A stretch of 64,000 nucleotides of DNA from a virus (Duplodnaviria > Caudoviricetes). Under the pieces are notes generated by a model. It saw only the letters and a list, made by a program, of their open reading frames with translations. It made no database searches and was not told the origin of the DNA. The position numbers were made by a program, and so were the translations under genes. The stretch lies in the IMG/VR virus record IMGVR_UViG_3300049182_000044, positions 96,001 through 160,000 of that record; one strand, 5' to 3'. Positions 11,587 to 46,354 of this stretch are shown here, in pieces; position 1 is the first letter of the stretch, and each line of letters begins with the position of its first letter.

Positions 11587-13242
11587 ATGGGAACCAATGC
11601 ACATTCTTCAGCCGGCGTATATGTTCGCGAGCTTGACCTTTCGCAACGCGTCGCTGCTGCTTCAACTTCCATTGGCGCCATCGTCGGTGCTTCCGACAAA
11701 GGCCCAGTAATGGAACGTACGCTGATTACTAGCGTACGCCAATTTATCGAAACTTTCGGAAAGCCGAATCCGCGTACTTCCTACATGCATTACTGCGCCC
11801 TGGCGTTCCTCGAAGAATCCAGCCGCTTGTACGTTACCCGTGTTTTGAGCAACGCAAACGATGCTCTCACCGCAGGTGCGTTTTTGACCGTTGACGATCT
11901 GGCAGCTGAAACGCCTCTGCTTTCGCTGAACAACTTTGACAACGGCACGAATACTCCGCTGGGTCGTTTTGACCCGTTCAACACTACGGAGTTCGACCCG
12001 ACTACTCCAGGTATTGAAAACACGCTGTTCATGGTTTGCGCAATCAACCCAGGAACATGGAACAACGACTTGCACGTTCGCATTCGTCCTTCCAACAAGC
12101 GCGGCGTGGACACTCCTGATGACCCGTATGTGTTCTGGATCGAAGTGTTTGTCGATTACAAGAGCAATCGCCAAGCTCCGGTTGAAGCATTCCTCGTTAG
12201 CCGTGATTACAAGATCGACGGCTTCGGCAATCAGATGTTCATCGAGGAAGTTATCAACAACAAGTCGAAGTACATCCGTGTTCGCAACAACCCGTATGCA
12301 CCGGCAGTTAAGGTGTTGCGTATCGCAAGTGAATTCCTGGACGGCGGCACGAACGGTGGTCGTCCGAGCGATGCTCAGATCAACCAAGGCTGGGAACTGT
12401 ATCGCGATCCGGAACAGCTTGATGTGAACATCCTGATTAACGGCGGTTACGCTACGCCGGCGGTTCAGCTGAAGATGGATGACATCTGCCAAGACCGTAT
12501 GGATTGCATCGCCGTCCTGGACATGCCGTCCGGTGAGCAAGAGGTTAGCCGCGCTGTCAACTATCGCCGCAATACCTTAAACCTCGATTCCTCCCGTTCT
12601 GCGATTTACTCGTCGGACGTGAAGATTCTGGATACGTACAACGACCGCGAGATCTTCATCCCGCCTAGTGGCCATGCCGCAGCTGCATACGCCCGTACGG
12701 ACGAGGAAGCTGAAACGTGGTTCGCCCCGGCTGGTATGAATCGTGGACGTCTGGACATTCTCGAAGCTCGTGTGATCTACAATCAGGGTGATCGCGATGC
12801 TTTGACCGATGCTCAGATCAATTCGATTCGTTTGATCCCAGGCGCAGGCTATCGTATCTGGGGTGCAGACACATTGCAGTCGATGGCTTCGGCTCTGTCC
12901 AACGTCAACGTTCGCCGTCTGCTGAACTTCATCGAGAAGTCGGTTTCGATTGCGGCACTGTATTCTGTTTTCAATCCCAATGACTTTGTGCTTCGCGCAC
13001 AGTTGACGGAAATGACGAATCGTTTCCTCAACCCTATTAAGACCAGCCGTGGTTTGTATCACTTCCAGGTGGTCTGTGATGAAAGTAACAACCCGCCCGA
13101 ACTGGTTGGTAGCGGCGATACGATTCTTGATGTGTACCTCGATCCGGTCATTCCGGCGAAGCGTATTCACTTGAATGCAATCGTCACTAAGACCGGCGCA
13201 AACTTCAAGGAGGTAGCGCAGGCAAGATCGGGCGAACAATAA
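11587..13242 (+). CDS. contractile tail sheath protein (T4 gp18-like)
   Basis: AGVYVRELDLS, GASDKGP, FIETFGKP, WFAPAGMNRG, NVNVRRLL and VYLDPVIPAKRIHLN. Confidence 0.95.
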   Translation: MGTNAHSSAGVYVRELDLSQRVAAASTSIGAIVGASDKGPVMERTLITSVRQFIETFGKPNPRTSYMHYCALAFLEESSRLYVTRVLSNANDALTAGAFLTVDDLAAETPLLSLNNFDNGTNTPLGRFDPFNTTEFDPTTPGIENTLFMVCAINPGTWNNDLHVRIRPSNKRGVDTPDDPYVFWIEVFVDYKSNRQAPVEAFLVSRDYKIDGFGNQMFIEEVINNKSKYIRVRNNPYAPAVKVLRIASEFLDGGTNGGRPSDAQINQGWELYRDPEQLDVNILINGGYATPAVQLKMDDICQDRMDCIAVLDMPSGEQEVSRAVNYRRNTLNLDSSRSAIYSSDVKILDTYNDREIFIPPSGHAAAAYARTDEEAETWFAPAGMNRGRLDILEARVIYNQGDRDALTDAQINSIRLIPGAGYRIWGADTLQSMASALSNVNVRRLLNFIEKSVSIAALYSVFNPNDFVLRAQLTEMTNRFLNPIKTSRGLYHFQVVCDESNNPPELVGSGDTILDVYLDPVIPAKRIHLNAIVTKTGANFKEVAQARSGEQ

Positions 13243-21272: not shown

Positions 21273-23390
21273 ATGGCTATTGATCTCGTATCATTCCTAC
21301 GGCCAAAGAACGGTAACACGTTCGCCCTTCTCGAAGATGTTTACTTGAAGGGCGGTTATCGTTCGGTCGCTAACGCAACAGAGCGCGATGCGATTGATCC
21401 GCTGTGCCGCAAGTCCGGTATGCTGGTGCTCACCCGAGACAACACCACGATCTGGAAACTGTCTGATGACCTTACTAGCTGGACTACGTTCGGCTTTGAA
21501 GGTCCTCAGGGTCCCCAAGGTGTTGCAGGTGTTGATGGCAAATCGGCTTATCAAGTATGGCTCGATGCTGGTAACGTAGGCACTGAAGTTGAGTTCCTCG
21601 CTTCGTTGCAGGGTCCCCAAGGTCCCCAAGGCATCCAGGGTGACCAAGGTCTTCAGGGTCCCGAAGGCCCTGCTGGCATCCAGGGCATCCAGGGCGATCA
21701 AGGTCCCCAAGGCATTCAAGGCCCTCAAGGCGAACAAGGTCCGGTTGGCCCTCAAGGCCCAGCAGGTGCGGATGGCGCTAACGGAGCAGATGGTCAATCG
21801 TTGGCTATCAGTGCTACTGGTACAACGCAAGACCGTGCCCTGTACGACACTGAGCTGAAAGGCTTCCTGTTCCTCGACACTGACACGTCACTCGTGTATG
21901 TCAAGAAGTCCGATGCATTCGCAGATTGGACTGCGGGTCAGCCGTTCGGCGTCGGTCCTCAAGGCGTGCAGGGTATCCAAGGTGAACAAGGTCTTCAAGG
22001 TCCTCAAGGCGTGCCTGGAGAACCCGGCCCCGCAGGTCCTCAGGGCCCCCAAGGTGAGGTTGGTATTTCGGTCATCACCAGTGAAGGCCCTCCGCTTGAT
22101 GAAGTAGGTCGTGAAGGCGAGTACTGCATCGACAAGACAAACTTCTACGTCTATGGGCCTAAGACGGCTGGCGTGTGGGGCATCGGCACAAGCATCATCG
22201 GGCCTGAAGGTCCTCAAGGTCCTGCTGGTGTCACAGGTCCGACCGCATACCAAGCATGGCTCGACGCAGGCAATGTCGGTACTGAAGCAGAGTTCATTAC
22301 TGCCATCACAGGTCCTCAGGGTCCCCAAGGTATTCAGGGTGAAGTTGGTCCTCAAGGTCCAGCAGGCCCCGCAGGTCCTTCTGCGTATCAAGCATGGCTA
22401 GACGCGGGTAACGTAGGCACTGAAGCAGAGTTCATTACTGCGATCACAGGCCCCGCAGGTCCTCAAGGTGAAGTTGGTCCTGCAGGTCCAGCTGGTCCTC
22501 AAGGCCCTTCTGCATACCAAGTGTGGCTCTCTGCTGGCAACGTAGGCACTGAATCAGACTTTATCCTTTCGATTACCGGCCCGATGGGTCCCCAAGGTAT
22601 TCAAGGTGAAGTTGGTCCTCAGGGCTTACAGGGTCCTTCCGGTCCTTCTGCTTACCAAGCGTGGCTTAATGCAGGTAACGTTGGTGACGAAGCTGCATTC
22701 ATCGCCGCGATCACAGGTCCCCAAGGTCCCCAAGGTATTCAGGGCCCCCAAGGTGAGCAAGGCTTGCAAGGCCCTCAGGGTATTCAAGGTCCCCAAGGTG
22801 AAGTTGGTCCTCAAGGTCCGGCAGGCACTGTTACGGGCGGTGCAATCGAAGGTAACGTCACTGTAAATGGTACGGTGCTTGCGAAGAACGTGTATGCTAC
22901 GTTGTCGGGCTTCCCCGATGCTAACACCTGCGAAGGTACGATTGTTATCGCTGAAGATAGCAACAAGCCGTATATCGCAAGTGATGGCACTTGGGTGGAA
23001 CTGCAGGTCGCACGTACTCTGGTTGCTCCTTATGATCTGGGCTTCTTCATTTCCGGCAACATGCCTACTACCAGCCAGGTGGTCGGCGTCAATCTCGTTG
23101 CTCGTAATGTGGCGATCACAGCCGGTTTCCCAGGTGCAGTCGCAAGGGCTAAGGTCGCTCCTACCACTCAAATCGTATTCAAGGTCGCAGTGAGCGGTGT
23201 CGATAAAGGCACGGTAACATTCAACATCGGTCAGACGAATGGCGTGTTTGCAATGGCTTCCAACTTGACGCTCCTTCCGGGTGACATGCTGGAGATCATC
23301 GCACCAGCTGGTGCCGACGCGACGATCAAGGATGTTGCAATCACCATCGTTGGACGTGCTGAAGCGCCTCACGGTAGTATGACGTTCTAA
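21273..23390 (+). CDS. collagen-like fibre protein
   Basis: Gly-X-Y runs interrupted by five (S/T)AYQxWLxAGNVG(T/D)E knobs; PYDL C-module shared with 43103. Confidence 0.85.
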
Positions 23391-31416: not shown

Positions 31417-32901
31417 ATGCTTATTGATGGAATTCAACTACCCCGTACCTCCGTTGTTAGCGGTATGGCGCTGGAACGTCTTACGACCTTTCCAGATAAT
31501 CCTGTTAAAGGTCAGTCATTCTTTCTGACCGAAACAGTCGGCGACTTCGACCCGGGCCAGTACACCTTCGGTGGTGTGGAATGGTCTGCAGGCTCTGGAG
31601 GCAATCCTTATTCCGACGCGAAAGAATCAGTACGCGTCGCAACAACTGAAAACATCACCCTTAATGGTCTCAAAACCATTGACGGTATCACCGTTGCCGA
31701 TAAAGATCGTGTACTGGTCAAGAACCAAACCGATCCTAAGCAGAACGGCATTTGGCAGGTAGTAGCATCTGGCAACTGGGTACGTGCGAAAGACGCATCC
31801 AATGCCAAAGGCTTGAACAGTGGTATGTACACCTTCGTAACTGAAGGTCAAGCAAACCAAGGTACAGGCTGGGTGTTGAATACTCCTGATCCGATCGTCC
31901 TCGATACCACTGGCCTGGCATTTCAGCAGTTTTCGGGTACAGGTAACATTTCGGCAGGTGCAGGTCTCCAGCGTGTAGGTAACTCCTTCTCGCTGTTGAG
32001 CATCATCGGCCTTACGCCGGGTACGTATCGTTCGGTCACGATTGACCAGTACGGACGTGTTACTGGCGGTACGAACCCTAGCACCCTCGCTGGTTATGGT
32101 ATCACGGATGGTCAGCAGATCATCACTGGTGCTGCAACGTCGATCACTACGAACAACCTGACTGCAAATCGCGTCATGGTTAGTGACGCTTCGGGTAAGG
32201 TCAGCCAAAGCACGATCACGACCAGTGAGCTGGCTACGATCAAGTCCAACAGTGATAATATGCAGGCTCTGCTTAACGGCAAGCAAGCAACGATTACTGG
32301 TGCTGCATCGACCGTTGTCTCTACAAACCTGAACCCTGACGTTCTGGTTGGTACTGACGCTAACGGCAAGATGATTAGCACGACTGCGCTGCTGTCTGAA
32401 GTCAACCAGCTGTCCGGTGTAACGAGTAACGTGCAGACTCAGATCAACACGAAGCTCAACAAGGCGGGGGATACGCTGACTGGACATCTGATCCAAGCGG
32501 CAGCGCCGACCGTGCAGGAACACCTGGTCAACAAGCAATACGTCGATCAGCAAGTGTCTTCGCTGGCTTCGCAACCGCGTTCGATCTTCGTGACCGTGCC
32601 TGGTGAGATCGTCCCGTTTGAAGGTACCCTGCGTTGGTATCCCCCGTTCCCGATCAGCGTATCGGCGTGCCGCATCTTCCAAGGTGTTGCGCCGACCATT
32701 ACGGATACAGTTGTTGACGTTCGCGTGAACGCTACGACTTCGGTGTTCACTGGTGCGAAGCCGACTATCACTACGAACAACCACGAAAGCACTCTCGTCA
32801 GCAGCAATGCACCGATGGGCGTGGATGACTTCCTGGTGATCGACGTAGATCAGGGTTCGGGTGAAGATCTTTCGATTCGTATTGACTACACCACTGAATA
32901 A
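31417..32901 (+). CDS. tail fibre protein
   Basis: SVRVATT..ITL.GL.TIDG...DRVLVKNQT...QNGIW module; KAGDTLTG and NKQYVD. Confidence 0.85.
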   Translation: MLIDGIQLPRTSVVSGMALERLTTFPDNPVKGQSFFLTETVGDFDPGQYTFGGVEWSAGSGGNPYSDAKESVRVATTENITLNGLKTIDGITVADKDRVLVKNQTDPKQNGIWQVVASGNWVRAKDASNAKGLNSGMYTFVTEGQANQGTGWVLNTPDPIVLDTTGLAFQQFSGTGNISAGAGLQRVGNSFSLLSIIGLTPGTYRSVTIDQYGRVTGGTNPSTLAGYGITDGQQIITGAATSITTNNLTANRVMVSDASGKVSQSTITTSELATIKSNSDNMQALLNGKQATITGAASTVVSTNLNPDVLVGTDANGKMISTTALLSEVNQLSGVTSNVQTQINTKLNKAGDTLTGHLIQAAAPTVQEHLVNKQYVDQQVSSLASQPRSIFVTVPGEIVPFEGTLRWYPPFPISVSACRIFQGVAPTITDTVVDVRVNATTSVFTGAKPTITTNNHESTLVSSNAPMGVDDFLVIDVDQGSGEDLSIRIDYTTE

Positions 32902-43102: not shown

Positions 43103-46100
43103 TTACACCAAGGATGCTGCGAATGTGAAGGCCACGTCTTCAAAGGCTGTATCGGTAGTGCCCGTAACAACTGCACTGAAGATATCACCGCGAGCGAACG
43201 TCGTCTCAGCTTCAGCTGTGAAGCCACCTGTATCAGAAGCTGCGGAGAAGATCAACGTACCAAACTCGACTCCGTTCTTACGCAGCGAGATTTGAACGCC
43301 CGCTGCAGCGGCAACACGCGACTTGGAGATGCTGTCGCCCATACCTACTGCGAACTTACAAGCACGTGCCATGACGATGCGAACCACTTCATCGTTTTGA
43401 GCAGGCTTACCCGAGAAGGACGAAGCGAGATCATAAGGAATTGCCGCAACCTTTTGATCGGTGTAGGTTCCTGCGGCTGTAGTAGCTGCTTGTTGAGCAG
43501 CCGCTTTAGCTGCATCAACGTACTGCTTTGGAGCTGCTTCGAGATCAGCTTCAGGATCAGCTGCAAGTACGAGCGGACCTGTCAGTGTGTCACCATCAAT
43601 GTTGATGTAACGTGCATCAGTGAAGGCTGTGTCGAGCGCAACGCCAGTAGCTGAAACCGAAATACCTGCGTCACCAACAACTGCGAGGGCTGCACCTGCA
43701 CCACCACTCAGGCCGTTACCTGCAACGGACGTAGCGAGTTCAACTTCAGACACGCCTGCCGACCCAACCTTCAGGCCATTCGCGCCTACTGCCAACGATG
43801 TGCCGTCGAGCTTGACTGCAAGTTGTGCATTAGTACCTGTCGAAGACGTAGAACCGTTTTCAGTCAGGAACAAGCCACCTGTTGCACGAACATCGATGCC
43901 AACTTCATCAGTCGGAAGCTGTGCAATACCAGCACCGAGATTCACATCGAACTGATTGCCAACCGTGACCAAGCCGATACCTGCGGTGATCGTCTGCGCG
44001 CCATTGAACTGAACAAACGTTACCGGCGTAGTACCCAGCACATCAGTTGTCTTGGCCGTGCAGGTGAATGCTTTGGAACCGTTTGTAGTACCATTGCGCA
44101 CATAGATCGCAGCCTTAGCGAGTTCTTCGATAGCGTCTGCGTCTTCAGTACGAACCCAAGTACCGTTAGAACCAGTACCGAGTACGTTCACCGTGTACAA
44201 GCCATTTTCAGAAGGAGTAACAGCGTCTTTCACGAGAACGCGATCAGCAACTTGCAAAGTCACGCCATCGACAACCTTCGGAGCGCCACCGTTCAAGGTC
44301 TTGCCGCCAGACAGTGCCGTCATTGCGTAGACTTTAGTAACGCCTGCGCCGTTGCCCTCAGCAGAAGCTGTAACCAGTGACGATGCGCCTACGTGAGCGT
44401 TCACTGCATCGCGCACTTGAGCCGCAGTCGAAGCGATATCTTCTTCAGCACCGCCAGTCAGGTTGATGAATGCCTGCGCAACAGCAACACCCGAACCGTC
44501 ACCTTCAACTGTTGCATCGACGAGAGCCGTAGCTGCGTTGACTGCATCCGCTACTTCTTGAGCTGTGGATACGATTGCGAAGACTGCACCACCAGACAGA
44601 TTTGACATGGACTGAGCCAGCACGTAGCCTTGACCGTCACCAGTAGCACTCGCATTCAGGAGAGCTGCAGCTGCACCATGCGCGTTCACAGCGATTGCAA
44701 CCGCACCTGCCGTCGAAGTGATAAGGAAGTTCTCACCGCCGTTACCGAGATTGGTGAAAGCCGCTACAGCAGCCGTACCAGTACCGTCACCACCTGCGGA
44801 GGCCGTGACCAGTGTCGAAGCATCTTCATCCAGGTTGACAGCATCTGCAACTGCTTGAGCAGTAGACGAAACCGTGAAGTTTGCACCGCCAGACAGATTA
44901 GTGAAGCCGGCCGCAACTGCAATGTCAGCACCCGTGCCTTCGTAGATAGCATTGACGAGCAGAGAAGCAGTAGGATCCGCTTCAACAGCGTTCGCAACGT
45001 CCAGTGCCGTTGAGGTAACATCGCCTGCAACGTCAGTGGCCAGCGTAACGGTAATGTCATTGCCATTCACACTGATGCTCAGTGCTGTCTCAGGGGCCGG
45101 TACAGCGTGCTCGATACGGATTGAATTACCTGCGAGGCCGCCATTGACTGCAGTGTAGGTCACGCCATCATTTTCAGCTACGCCGCCAAGTGTCAACGAT
45201 GCTGCCGTATTGTCAGTAGTCGCCAAGGTAACTGCAATGTCGTTGCCTGTAACAGCTACGTCCAGCACTTGATTCGGAGCCGCAGCGATTTGGGTCACGC
45301 GAATCGAATTGCCTGTAACGCCTTCAGTGTTTGCCGCATAGGACACAGCACTATTGCCTACACCGATATCCAGGTGAGCTGCGTCACCAGCGTCCGTTGC
45401 CAACGTAACAGTCACATCCGAGCCGGCCACGCTAACAGCCAACGTCTGATCCGGAGCATCAGCGATGTGAGCGACACGAATCGAATTGCCTTCAACACCA
45501 GCTACATCCGCTACATAGACAACTGCTTCGTTCGTAGCATCGTTACCGATAACCAGATCAGCTGCAACGTCAGTGCTTGTTTCGAGCGTAACCGTAATGT
45601 CGTTGCCCGACACGTTGACTGCCAACGCTTGTCCTTGCGTCGAGCCGTTATGTGCAACACGAATCGAATTGCCTGCGATGCCTTCAGCGGCTGCTGTATA
45701 GATGACACCATCGTTAGGTGCACCACCACCAACTGTGACTGCAGCTTGATCGCCAGCAGACAGGCCGAGTGCGACAGTAATGTCGTTGCCTGCGACCGAG
45801 ACAACCGGCTGTGCACCAACTGATCCCAGTACGTGTTCGACACGGATCGAATCGCCAGCAGGACCTACGGTCTTTGCCGAATAGGTAACGTCATCGTTTG
45901 CACCAATGCCACTGACATTCAGTTGCGAAGAAGAGCCGACAGGGCCAGTTGTAGCTGCCACTGCATCATTCTTCCACACCAGGCCGGTAGCTGCATTGTC
46001 AACGTAGTTCTTGTTGACTACGTCCGTCGGGAGGACAGGCGCATCGTTCAGTGTAATCTTTGTGCCGTTCGGCATCACCAGGTTGCCCTGCATTGCGTCA

Positions 46101-46354
46101 CCGGCGACGTTCACCGGAGTGAAACCGAGGGCTTCTTGCTTCGCAGTCCAGTCAGTGATTTGAGCATCGCTTACCGTGCGATGATCCACATCTTCTTTTG
46201 CGTTCTTCAGATGGTTCAGATGAACCACTTCACTGCCAGTGCTGAAGAACACATCTTTGTCAGCTGTGTTAATGGCGATTTCGCCATCCAGCATTTGCTC
46301 CAGAGTAGGTGTGACACCTGTTTGGTTGGACCTACGATGTTGTAGACGGTTCAT
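43103..46354 (-). CDS. 1083-aa fibre protein with a nested repeat block
   Basis: RRS...GEIAINTAD N-module; DRVLVKD...ENGLY module split by five N-half and five C-half repeats; PYDL C-module. Confidence 0.88.
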   Translation of the reverse strand: MNRLQHRRSNQTGVTPTLEQMLDGEIAINTADKDVFFSTGSEVVHLNHLKNAKEDVDHRTVSDAQITDWTAKQEALGFTPVNVAGDAMQGNLVMPNGTKITLNDAPVLPTDVVNKNYVDNAATGLVWKNDAVAATTGPVGSSSQLNVSGIGANDDVTYSAKTVGPAGDSIRVEHVLGSVGAQPVVSVAGNDITVALGLSAGDQAAVTVGGGAPNDGVIYTAAAEGIAGNSIRVAHNGSTQGQALAVNVSGNDITVTLETSTDVAADLVIGNDATNEAVVYVADVAGVEGNSIRVAHIADAPDQTLAVSVAGSDVTVTLATDAGDAAHLDIGVGNSAVSYAANTEGVTGNSIRVTQIAAAPNQVLDVAVTGNDIAVTLATTDNTAASLTLGGVAENDGVTYTAVNGGLAGNSIRIEHAVPAPETALSISVNGNDITVTLATDVAGDVTSTALDVANAVEADPTASLLVNAIYEGTGADIAVAAGFTNLSGGANFTVSSTAQAVADAVNLDEDASTLVTASAGGDGTGTAAVAAFTNLGNGGENFLITSTAGAVAIAVNAHGAAAALLNASATGDGQGYVLAQSMSNLSGGAVFAIVSTAQEVADAVNAATALVDATVEGDGSGVAVAQAFINLTGGAEEDIASTAAQVRDAVNAHVGASSLVTASAEGNGAGVTKVYAMTALSGGKTLNGGAPKVVDGVTLQVADRVLVKDAVTPSENGLYTVNVLGTGSNGTWVRTEDADAIEELAKAAIYVRNGTTNGSKAFTCTAKTTDVLGTTPVTFVQFNGAQTITAGIGLVTVGNQFDVNLGAGIAQLPTDEVGIDVRATGGLFLTENGSTSSTGTNAQLAVKLDGTSLAVGANGLKVGSAGVSEVELATSVAGNGLSGGAGAALAVVGDAGISVSATGVALDTAFTDARYINIDGDTLTGPLVLAADPEADLEAAPKQYVDAAKAAAQQAATTAAGTYTDQKVAAIPYDLASSFSGKPAQNDEVVRIVMARACKFAVGMGDSISKSRVAAAAGVQISLRKNGVEFGTLIFSAASDTGGFTAEAETTFARGDIFSAVVTGTTDTAFEDVAFTFAASLV
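44303..45905 (-). repeat. nested AAAAA-BBBBB protein repeat
   Basis: Five G(N/D)SIR...G(N/S)D(I/V).V.L units followed by five STA..V..AV...G.G....L.(N)GG units. Confidence 0.85.

Follow-up and report, generated by a model that had tools for sequence, protein, structure and literature searches.

A jumbo phage fibre protein in which one sheath-type domain is probably inserted into itself five times

Introduction

How is a protein to be understood that carries the first half of a domain five times in a row and then the second half five times in a row, so that only one complete copy exists, at the point where the two series meet? This question is raised by P0001, a 1083-aa tail-fibre-like virion protein encoded in a 64,000-nucleotide stretch of DNA (the window), which comprises bases 96001-160000 of the complete 281,566-bp virus record IMGVR_UViG_3300049182_000044. 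The virus is a jumbo myovirus (282 kb). A preliminary description, made from the sequence alone, had proposed that the arrangement arose by recursive insertion of one domain at a single loop of itself, and that the whole block sits in turn inside a fibre module.

Domain insertion is usually one level deep. To my knowledge, the main case so far put forward of one fold nested deeply in itself is SI3 of RNA polymerase. In Prochlorococcus rpoC2, eight domains form a six-level recursive insertion architecture, a case singled out to illustrate complex nesting in a survey of 2.7 million classified domains (PMC13114784). Here I argue that P0001 is very probably a virion fibre protein in which one sheath-type domain has been recursively inserted in its own loop, which would give five nested beads, each made of A_k and B_(6-k), where A denotes the N-terminal and B the C-terminal half of the domain and the copies of each are numbered along the chain.

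Results

Five N-halves are followed by five C-halves

P0001 contains five A repeats and then five B repeats, and its sole complete unit, of about 100 residues, lies at the pivot (residues 394-491). The A cores, about 48 residues long, occur five times in residues 152-441 with a period of about 61 and share the motif ...Y.A...G..GNSIR...V.V.GNDITVTL; the B cores, about 45 residues long, occur five times in residues 447-685 with a period of about 49 and share the motif STA..V..AVN....LV.A...G.G......L.GG. The G[ND]SIR element of the former is found at residues 167, 228, 289, 348 and 409, and the STA element of the latter at residues 448, 497, 547, 596 and 642. Identity ranges from 38 to 56% among the A copies and from 46 to 58% among the B copies, and both A1-A4 compared with A5 and B2-B5 compared with B1 are 46-56% identical. 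A search for tandem repeats at the DNA level over the gene returned nothing which, together with the divergence of the copies, suggests that they are old.

The same order emerges from a profile of the AB unit built from 61 contiguous units, 60 of which come from other proteins. Over the whole 281,566-bp genome this profile has nine matches, all of them in the P0001 gene and none elsewhere. A full match (profile positions 3-103) occurs once, to A5 plus B1 (E 3.7e-34); four matches, to A1-A4, cover only the first half of the profile (positions 3-56, E 4e-15 to 5e-10), and four more, to B2-B5, only the second half (positions 52-103, E 1e-12 to 2e-9). The N-halves thus stand in series, the C-halves stand in series, and a single contiguous unit lies innermost, as nested insertion predicts. 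The profile is independent of the motif-based repeat definitions, and it confirms the AAAAA-BBBBB order far beyond chance. The preliminary description had read the repeats in this way, as five A and five B in a row joined at the pivot only, and its positions hold as well: its interval 44303-45905 corresponds to residues of about 150-684, and its pivot at about 45030 falls in the pivot loop (Table 1).

The block interrupts a fibre module

The module that receives the block (the host module) is common to 1549 database proteins at E<=1e-8, and an uninterrupted copy (...AKESVRVATTENITLNGLKTIDGITVADKDRVLVK...) is present in a paralogous fibre protein of the same virus, P0033. Residues 686-827 of P0001 are 37% identical to residues 81-218 of P0033, and residues 55-235 of P0033, the intact module, match the capsid decoration protein 9nx3_A of the PDB (E 3.5e-7). 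When residues 106-138 of P0001 are joined to residues 685-835, the score of the host-module hidden Markov model (HMM) rises from 103.7 to 121.3 bits and the match runs end to end, over profile positions 2-146. Control pieces put in place of 106-138 gave at most 110.7 bits where they did not overlap the true N-terminal piece, and 111.8 bits for one that did. MAFFT, in addition, split 43 of 44 intact host modules at 136/137 and resumed them at 686. With the insert left out, P0001 therefore matches from end to end a phage tail-fibre module that is phrog_2647- or phrog_30390-like and 9nx3_A-like.

By sequence, then, the block (residues 137-685) interrupts the host module between ATT and TLNG, exactly at 136/137 and 685/686, as had been proposed by reference to the intact copy in the gene at 31417. 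Compared with the common fibre module (...VRVATTxNITLSG..DG..GDRVLVK..., 9nx3_A), residues 119-136 and 686-831 of P0001 align end to end but are split by 549 residues. Counting the host module, the nesting is six levels deep. AB units also occur in the host modules of P0029 and P0057, at other places (profile position of about 60-70, not about 30).

An AlphaFold2 (AF2) model of residues 100-830, the second of two made here, bears on how the split module folds. Its alignment held homologues of the host module only, with no rows over the repeats, since in a joint alignment of repeats and host module MAFFT put host rows on the repeats. The predicted local distance difference test (pLDDT) score is 87-89 for the N-terminal piece 119-136 and about 90-97 for the rest of the module, and residues 32-111 of 8gtc_S, a domain of a baseplate protein, match model positions 27-685 across the insert with Z 5.0. 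9nx3_A was not among the matches listed in structural searches with this model, where solenoid-like rows filled the lists, so the placement of the N-terminal strand in the host fold is argued from sequence together with the 8gtc_S row.

Table 1. Features of P0001 and of a paralogous fibre gene in the window (positions are those of the window).
Feature	Residues	Positions	Strand	Evidence or remark
Whole gene (P0001)	1-1083	43103..46354	-	tail-fibre-like virion protein; open frame without stop
Host module, N-terminal piece (...WKNDAVAATT)	119-136	45947..46000	-	module HMM, split alignment
Inserted block of five nested units (549 residues)	137-685	44300..45946	-	motifs, AB profile, AF2 model
A1, N-half of outermost unit, partner B5	152-199	45758..45901	-	half-match, E 5e-10
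A2, partner B4	213-260	45575..45718	-	half-match, E 7.7e-13
A3, partner B3	274-321	45392..45535	-	half-match, E 4.3e-15
A4, partner B2	333-380	45215..45358	-	half-match, E 2.6e-12
A5, N-half of innermost, only contiguous unit	394-441	45032..45175	-	full match, E 3.7e-34
Pivot loop (five residues)	442-446	45017..45031	-	A/B loop, putative insertion site at every level
B1, C-half of innermost unit	447-491	44882..45016	-	full match with A5
B2, partner A4	496-540	44735..44869	-	half-match, E 5.4e-10
B3, partner A3	546-590	44585..44719	-	half-match, E 1.7e-10
B4, partner A2	595-636	44447..44572	-	half-match, E 1.6e-9
B5, partner A1	641-685	44300..44434	-	half-match, E 1.4e-12
Host module, remainder (TLNG..DGV..DRVLVK...)	686-831	43862..44299	-	host HMM, 103.7 bits
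C-terminal domain	937-1083	43106..43546	-	phrog_29809 and phrog_22757 matches
Paralogous fibre gene P0033 (494 aa), uninterrupted host module		31417..32901	+	sequence comparison

The numbers of the two halves vary together in relatives

Database searches, which matched 1065 proteins at E<=1e-3, show that A and B in direct succession form a unit of about 100 residues that occurs singly or in tandem. Phage and sheath proteins carry it, as do TadE-like proteins, M14 peptidases and flagellar proteins, the last in the outer part of hook and hook-associated FlgL proteins. Profiles of A and of B were scanned over 172 relatives, with A written as an opening and B as a closing bracket, and 141 of them yielded words with balanced brackets. 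The words found were AB (43 relatives), ABAB (20), AABB (28), AAABBB (9), A4B4 (3), A5B5 (5) and A8B8 (one, P0042), and several relatives had mixed words such as AABABB, AABAABBB, AABABABABB and AABBAB. Dozens of other proteins, most of them from phages, thus show bracket-like nesting. P0042 (925 aa), with eight A and then eight B, would have eight nesting levels if its halves paired as in P0001.

Balance is not confined to the simplest words: 56 of the 77 relatives that contain AA are exactly balanced. Most unbalanced relatives show gaps of about 50 or about 150 aa at which diverged B halves escaped detection. For pure A^nB^m relatives, n equals m in 45 of 59 as detected (Spearman rho 0.61, p 3e-7), and six more, mostly giant proteins with six to seven copies, would be balanced (about 51 of 59) if gaps of about 50 or about 150 aa are counted as missed divergent B halves. 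The remaining eight include four with B regions too divergent for the profile and four that are off by one or two copies; two proteins with such divergent B regions, P0109 and P0161, were aligned by phmmer across the B run of P0001. Apart from relatives that open with an unmatched B or have one or two B too many, none of the 172 has an order that violates nesting, and two of those opening with B, which begin at residue 2-7, are probably truncated. The balanced words and the frequent equality of n and m indicate that the numbers of N- and C-halves vary together across relatives, and the forecast of such joint variation is borne out by 2+2, 3+3, 4+4, 5+5 and 8+8 forms.

The loop between A and B also receives unrelated sequence. 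In P0011, P0055, P0115, P0124 and P0167, a foreign insert of 105-275 residues occupies precisely the pivot loop of a balanced nest (3+3 or 2+2), which suggests that the A/B loop acts as a general insertion site and that a nest can serve as a stalk with another domain at the tip. In P0013 (FlgE-like) and P0017, inspection by eye points to a second place of insertion, within the B half: further complete AB units follow the helix of one B and part it from the last strands of that B.

The predicted structure pairs the halves as a mirror

The first AF2 model covers residues 140-700 (model number equals protein number minus 139) and was computed from an alignment of 74 rows (73 relatives) made by MAFFT, not by hand. 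MAFFT placed the relatives concentrically without guidance, with single units on residues 391-494, 2+2 proteins on 324-545, 3+3 proteins on 269-595, and 4+4 and 5+5 proteins further out. The model has a mean pLDDT of 91.2 and a predicted template modelling score of 0.59.

A structural search with VIA-align against 48,161 PDB representative chains gave 34 rows with Z>=2, and every one of them begins in A_k and finishes in B_(6-k), none spanning a non-mirrored pair. A5 with B1 is covered over model positions 244-352 by the phiCD508 sheath (Z 8.6) and DSY3957 (Z 7.9). For A2 with B4, the single sheath domain 9ezm_A (H. borinquense, residues 89-208) aligns with 93 residues over model positions 61-496 (Z 6.9, root-mean-square deviation (rmsd) 3.2), a span shared by the phiKZ chains 3j0h_A and 9xps_x. 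For A4 with B2, the phi-kp24, KP1 and phiKZ sheaths align over 183-401 or 184-402 (Z 2.9-3.1), 8au1_A giving a span of 219 residues. A3 with B3 is covered by FliD D2-D3 and FliC over 124-451 (Z 2.3-2.6), and A1 with B5 by various chains over 1-546, 1-531 and similar ranges (Z 2.1-2.7). A compact domain of about 90 residues can extend over a span of 436 residues only if the two halves lie together, so the pairing in the model is nested, and each N-half is predicted to form one compact domain with its mirrored C-half. ESM Atlas models of relatives, for which no alignment was used, superpose on 125-261 residues of the block (template modelling score by hit 0.44-0.51).

The pivot unit has the fold of a peripheral sheath domain

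Residues 96-205 of the phiCD508 sheath align with the pivot unit, A5 plus B1, at Z 8.6-8.8 over 97-101 residues (rmsd 2.8-2.9, model 241-354), and residues 93-181 of DSY3957 (3hxl) at Z 7.9. A VIA-align re-check of Foldseek candidates retained sheath proteins only, with Z 8.8, 8.6, 8.5, 8.4, 7.9 and 7.2-7.6, among them phiCD508, Lin1278 (3lml) and DSY3957. The best row outside contractile-sheath proteins reaches only Z 2.7, which assigns the unit to the fold of the sheath peripheral domain. Rows to the phage 812 sheath (model 154-406, rmsd 6-7) are two-domain alignments rather than clean single units. Foldseek with the 561-residue model against the PDB and AFDB clusters returned just Lin1278 (probability 0.63) and a few single-unit matches, being ill-suited to a string of beads.

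In phiCD508 the sheath protein has three domains, of which the outermost is flexible and exposed (PMC11948020), and residues 96-205 presumably correspond to that outermost domain. Sequence comparison points the same way more faintly. The AB unit has no Pfam model of its own, and the nearest is PF17481 (Phage_sheath_domII), to which 16 of the 61 AB units give weak matches (best E 1.4e-3) and P0001 gives none; the best score, 20.3 bits from the relative P0034, falls short of the gathering cut-off of 31.4 bits. The unit also has a weak profile match to the sheath protein gp20 (8fop, E 0.006), and a PDB sequence search with one AB unit alone returned nothing. AB units do occur inside real sheath proteins (P0023, P0018), as well as in the outer region of FlgE and FlgL homologues (P0003, P0013, P0014). 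Both structural expectations of the preliminary description, a likeness of the pivot unit to an accessory sheath domain and a pairing of A5-B1, A4-B2, A3-B3, A2-B4 and A1-B5 in an AlphaFold model, agree with these results.

Compared with the sheath peripheral domain (phiCD508 gp55 residues of about 96-205, DSY3957, Lin1278; PF17481), each AB unit has the same fold, but in P0001 it sits in a fibre, not a sheath, and would be nested in itself five times. The sheaths of T4 (gp18), phiKZ and phi-kp24 also align discontinuously, which indicates that they too host an insert, with one insertion level seen there.

Weighing the interpretation

Several observations weigh against recursive nesting in P0001. 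In the second AF2 model the block has a pLDDT of 30-65, the A run is drawn as a beta-solenoid-like coil and the B run is unstructured; the nested model thus depends on the alignment, because AF2 without repeat rows failed to reproduce it. In the first model, the rows for A3-B3 and A1-B5 are weak (Z 2.1-2.7), and the pairing of halves was read from structural-alignment ranges, not from a contact map. A covariation potential favoured the bracket partner only weakly, in 141 of 258 comparisons (p 0.048). The identities of A to A and of B to B copies within P0001 carry no signal of a mirrored genealogy, the mirrored order ranking 69th of 120 permutations, and the scan of viral contigs found no orthologue with a different nesting depth at the same host site. 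Finally, the function of the arm is purely my inference.

The first of these points invites the view that the two runs fold independently, A as a beta-solenoid or beta-sheet rod and B as an alpha/beta array, with A5 and B1 merely abutting. The solenoid-like A run of the second model (pLDDT 40-65) does match SufD, PL6 alginate lyases, TPS secretion domains and tailspikes at Z 5-8. However, the solenoid appears in the alignment-poor model only and is absent from the confident one (pLDDT 91), which pairs the halves; the second model is unreliable over the block because the block there has no alignment depth, and it offers no fold for the B run. Separate folding also leaves unexplained both the equality of n and m in pure A^nB^m relatives and words such as AABAABBB, and it sits badly with A1-A4 being so similar to A5, which forms half of a sheath-type domain with B1. 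Modelling alone does not dismiss the solenoid, and it is mainly the homology to A5 and B1 and the comparative data that make separate folding highly improbable. When A3 (259-322) and B3 (543-596) were modelled as separate chains without an alignment, both were poorly folded.

Equal copy numbers would also be expected if the halves paired between chains, in a domain-swapped lattice within an oligomeric (for example trimeric) fibre rather than in a hairpin arm, and fibre proteins are usually trimers. I regard such swapping as quite unlikely, since standalone 2+2 proteins of about 250 aa occur and the monomer model is confident. The five-residue pivot, together with a contiguous AB that is monomeric in 43 single-unit relatives, argues that at least A5-B1 is an intrachain pair, and the short B-to-B linkers would place B2 beside A4 of the same chain.

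A third alternative keeps the pairing within the chain but makes it parallel (A1-B1 to A5-B5) or mixed. In its favour, the covariation potential, which was trained on 193 contiguous AB pairs and chose correctly in 379 of 564 comparisons of its own kind, ranked the mirrored assignment first of 120 in two of four 5+5 proteins and did not rank it first in most proteins. Against it stand the uniformly mirrored VIA-align rows and words of the AABABB type, which make sense under nesting only; parallel pairing would, moreover, need long crossing connections, and the linkers have just 4-12 residues. A non-mirrored arrangement is therefore extremely improbable.

Recursive nesting remains the explanation that I favour. 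The order of the halves and the split host module can be read directly from the gene product, and the mirrored pairing is present in the confident model. Given their identity to A5 and B1, A1-A4 and B2-B5 should together adopt the fold that A5 and B1 adopt.

Discussion

On the favoured interpretation, the repeated unit would be an alpha/beta domain of about 100 residues, of the kind that contractile-tail sheath proteins bear on their outer face. The receiving loop would follow the final strand of A (...ITVTLATD) and precede the helix with which B begins (TSTA...). The chain would run out through A1-A5, turn at the five-residue loop and come back through B1-B5, so that each bead consists of A_k and B_(6-k) and the distal bead (A5 plus B1) alone is contiguous. 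The product would be a two-stranded string of five beads, with linkers of about 12 residues on the outgoing and about four on the returning strand. This out-and-back geometry is probable, judging from alignment ranges and chain connectivity. Both ends of the block would lie side by side at the turn between ATT and TLNG, which may be why the block fits a tight fibre turn without disturbing the host fold. Folding may begin at the tip and proceed towards the base, since A1-A4 must wait for the B halves to be synthesised before they can pair.

What might such a block do? It may stand out from the fibre as a stalk or decoration and keep a distal domain well clear of the fibre axis, probably so that the cell surface can be touched. 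An external role on the virion fits with relatives encoded beside tail-tube and head genes and with the exposure of the domain in sheaths. Nothing in the block indicates a ligand, an enzyme motif or movement, and the word telescopic, used in the preliminary description, is best dropped, as there is no sign of extension or retraction.

The closest known system is SI3 of the cyanobacterial RNA polymerase beta' subunit (sandwich-barrel hybrid motif, HABAS), which like P0001 has one fold recursively inserted in itself and six levels, counting the host module in P0001. The fold, the class of protein (virion fibre versus polymerase) and the setting differ, and AB nesting takes the form of a clean A^nB^n series at one loop, with a depth of one to eight in many unrelated host proteins. 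This variable depth across unrelated hosts suggests a property of the domain family, not of one protein. Flagellin, FlgE and FliD (D0-D1-D2-D3) share an out-and-back chain in which the proximal domains are built from N- and C-terminal segments; unlike here, the nested domains of flagellin have different folds and are not copies of one domain, and the structural matches to FliD D2-D3 and FliC (Z 2.3-2.6) are too weak for a claim of homology.

Recursive nesting of the same fold is, given the SI3 precedent, already known in principle. A search of the literature on nested domain insertion in phages found no description of the present architecture. As far as the literature was searched, what is new is a different fold with recursive nesting, its use in a phage fibre and a family-wide bracket grammar that reaches depth eight. 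I consider it somewhat more plausible than the opposite that the AB unit is, generally, a self-nesting insertion module with a bracket grammar, whose A/B loop takes a copy of the unit itself, a tandem pair or a foreign domain, and whose stalks, one to eight levels deep, can be fitted into loops of surface proteins that are unrelated to one another (flagellar hooks and FlgL as well as phage fibres and tail-tube-associated proteins).

If so, the 8+8 protein P0042 and the 5+1 levels of P0001 would equal or exceed the deepest nesting highlighted among the 2.7 million domains, and the AB unit would be a second fold with deep recursive nesting, at variable depth and in many hosts. It would become possible to test what lets a domain host itself, how nested proteins fold (from the tip inwards, after the return chain has been made) and whether nesting is a general phage way of building thin projecting stalks that fit one loop. 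A stalk whose ends meet would also lend itself to use as a scaffold that presents a cargo domain at any distance desired, and some relatives do carry foreign tip domains.

Gene context and additional observations

The PHROG matches of P0001 are to virion structural, fibre-like families and lie over residues 662-1082. The tail sheath gene of the virus is at 11587-13242, and many fibre-like genes surround P0001. When the gene was compared by blastn with 50,697 phage records, a single match of 109 bases emerged, at chance level, and a scan of viral contigs for orthologues gave just matches to a generic fibre motif (...KQYVDAAK...).

The two families of unknown function that match the C-terminal domain, phrog_29809 and phrog_22757, also match the C-terminus of a 705-aa fibre protein encoded at 21273-23390, so the last 145 or so residues of P0001 appear to be a tip domain common to two fibres of one phage.

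Some relatives occur in unexpected or suggestive places. In P0015 (1051 aa), one AB unit with 51% identity to that at the pivot lies amid Pfam domains of a molybdopterin oxidoreductase, an unexpected host that is not a surface protein. On the siphovirus-like contig of P0066, a standalone 2+2 protein is encoded directly after the major tail tube gene, and on the contig of P0034 the gene for a 5+5 protein lies directly upstream of the portal gene.

The database copy of P0001 (P0002, 1063 aa) starts 20 codons downstream of the start of the longest open reading frame. The extra 20 codons (46295-46354) encode an N-terminal stretch, RLQHRRS..., that resembles a usual fibre N-terminus.

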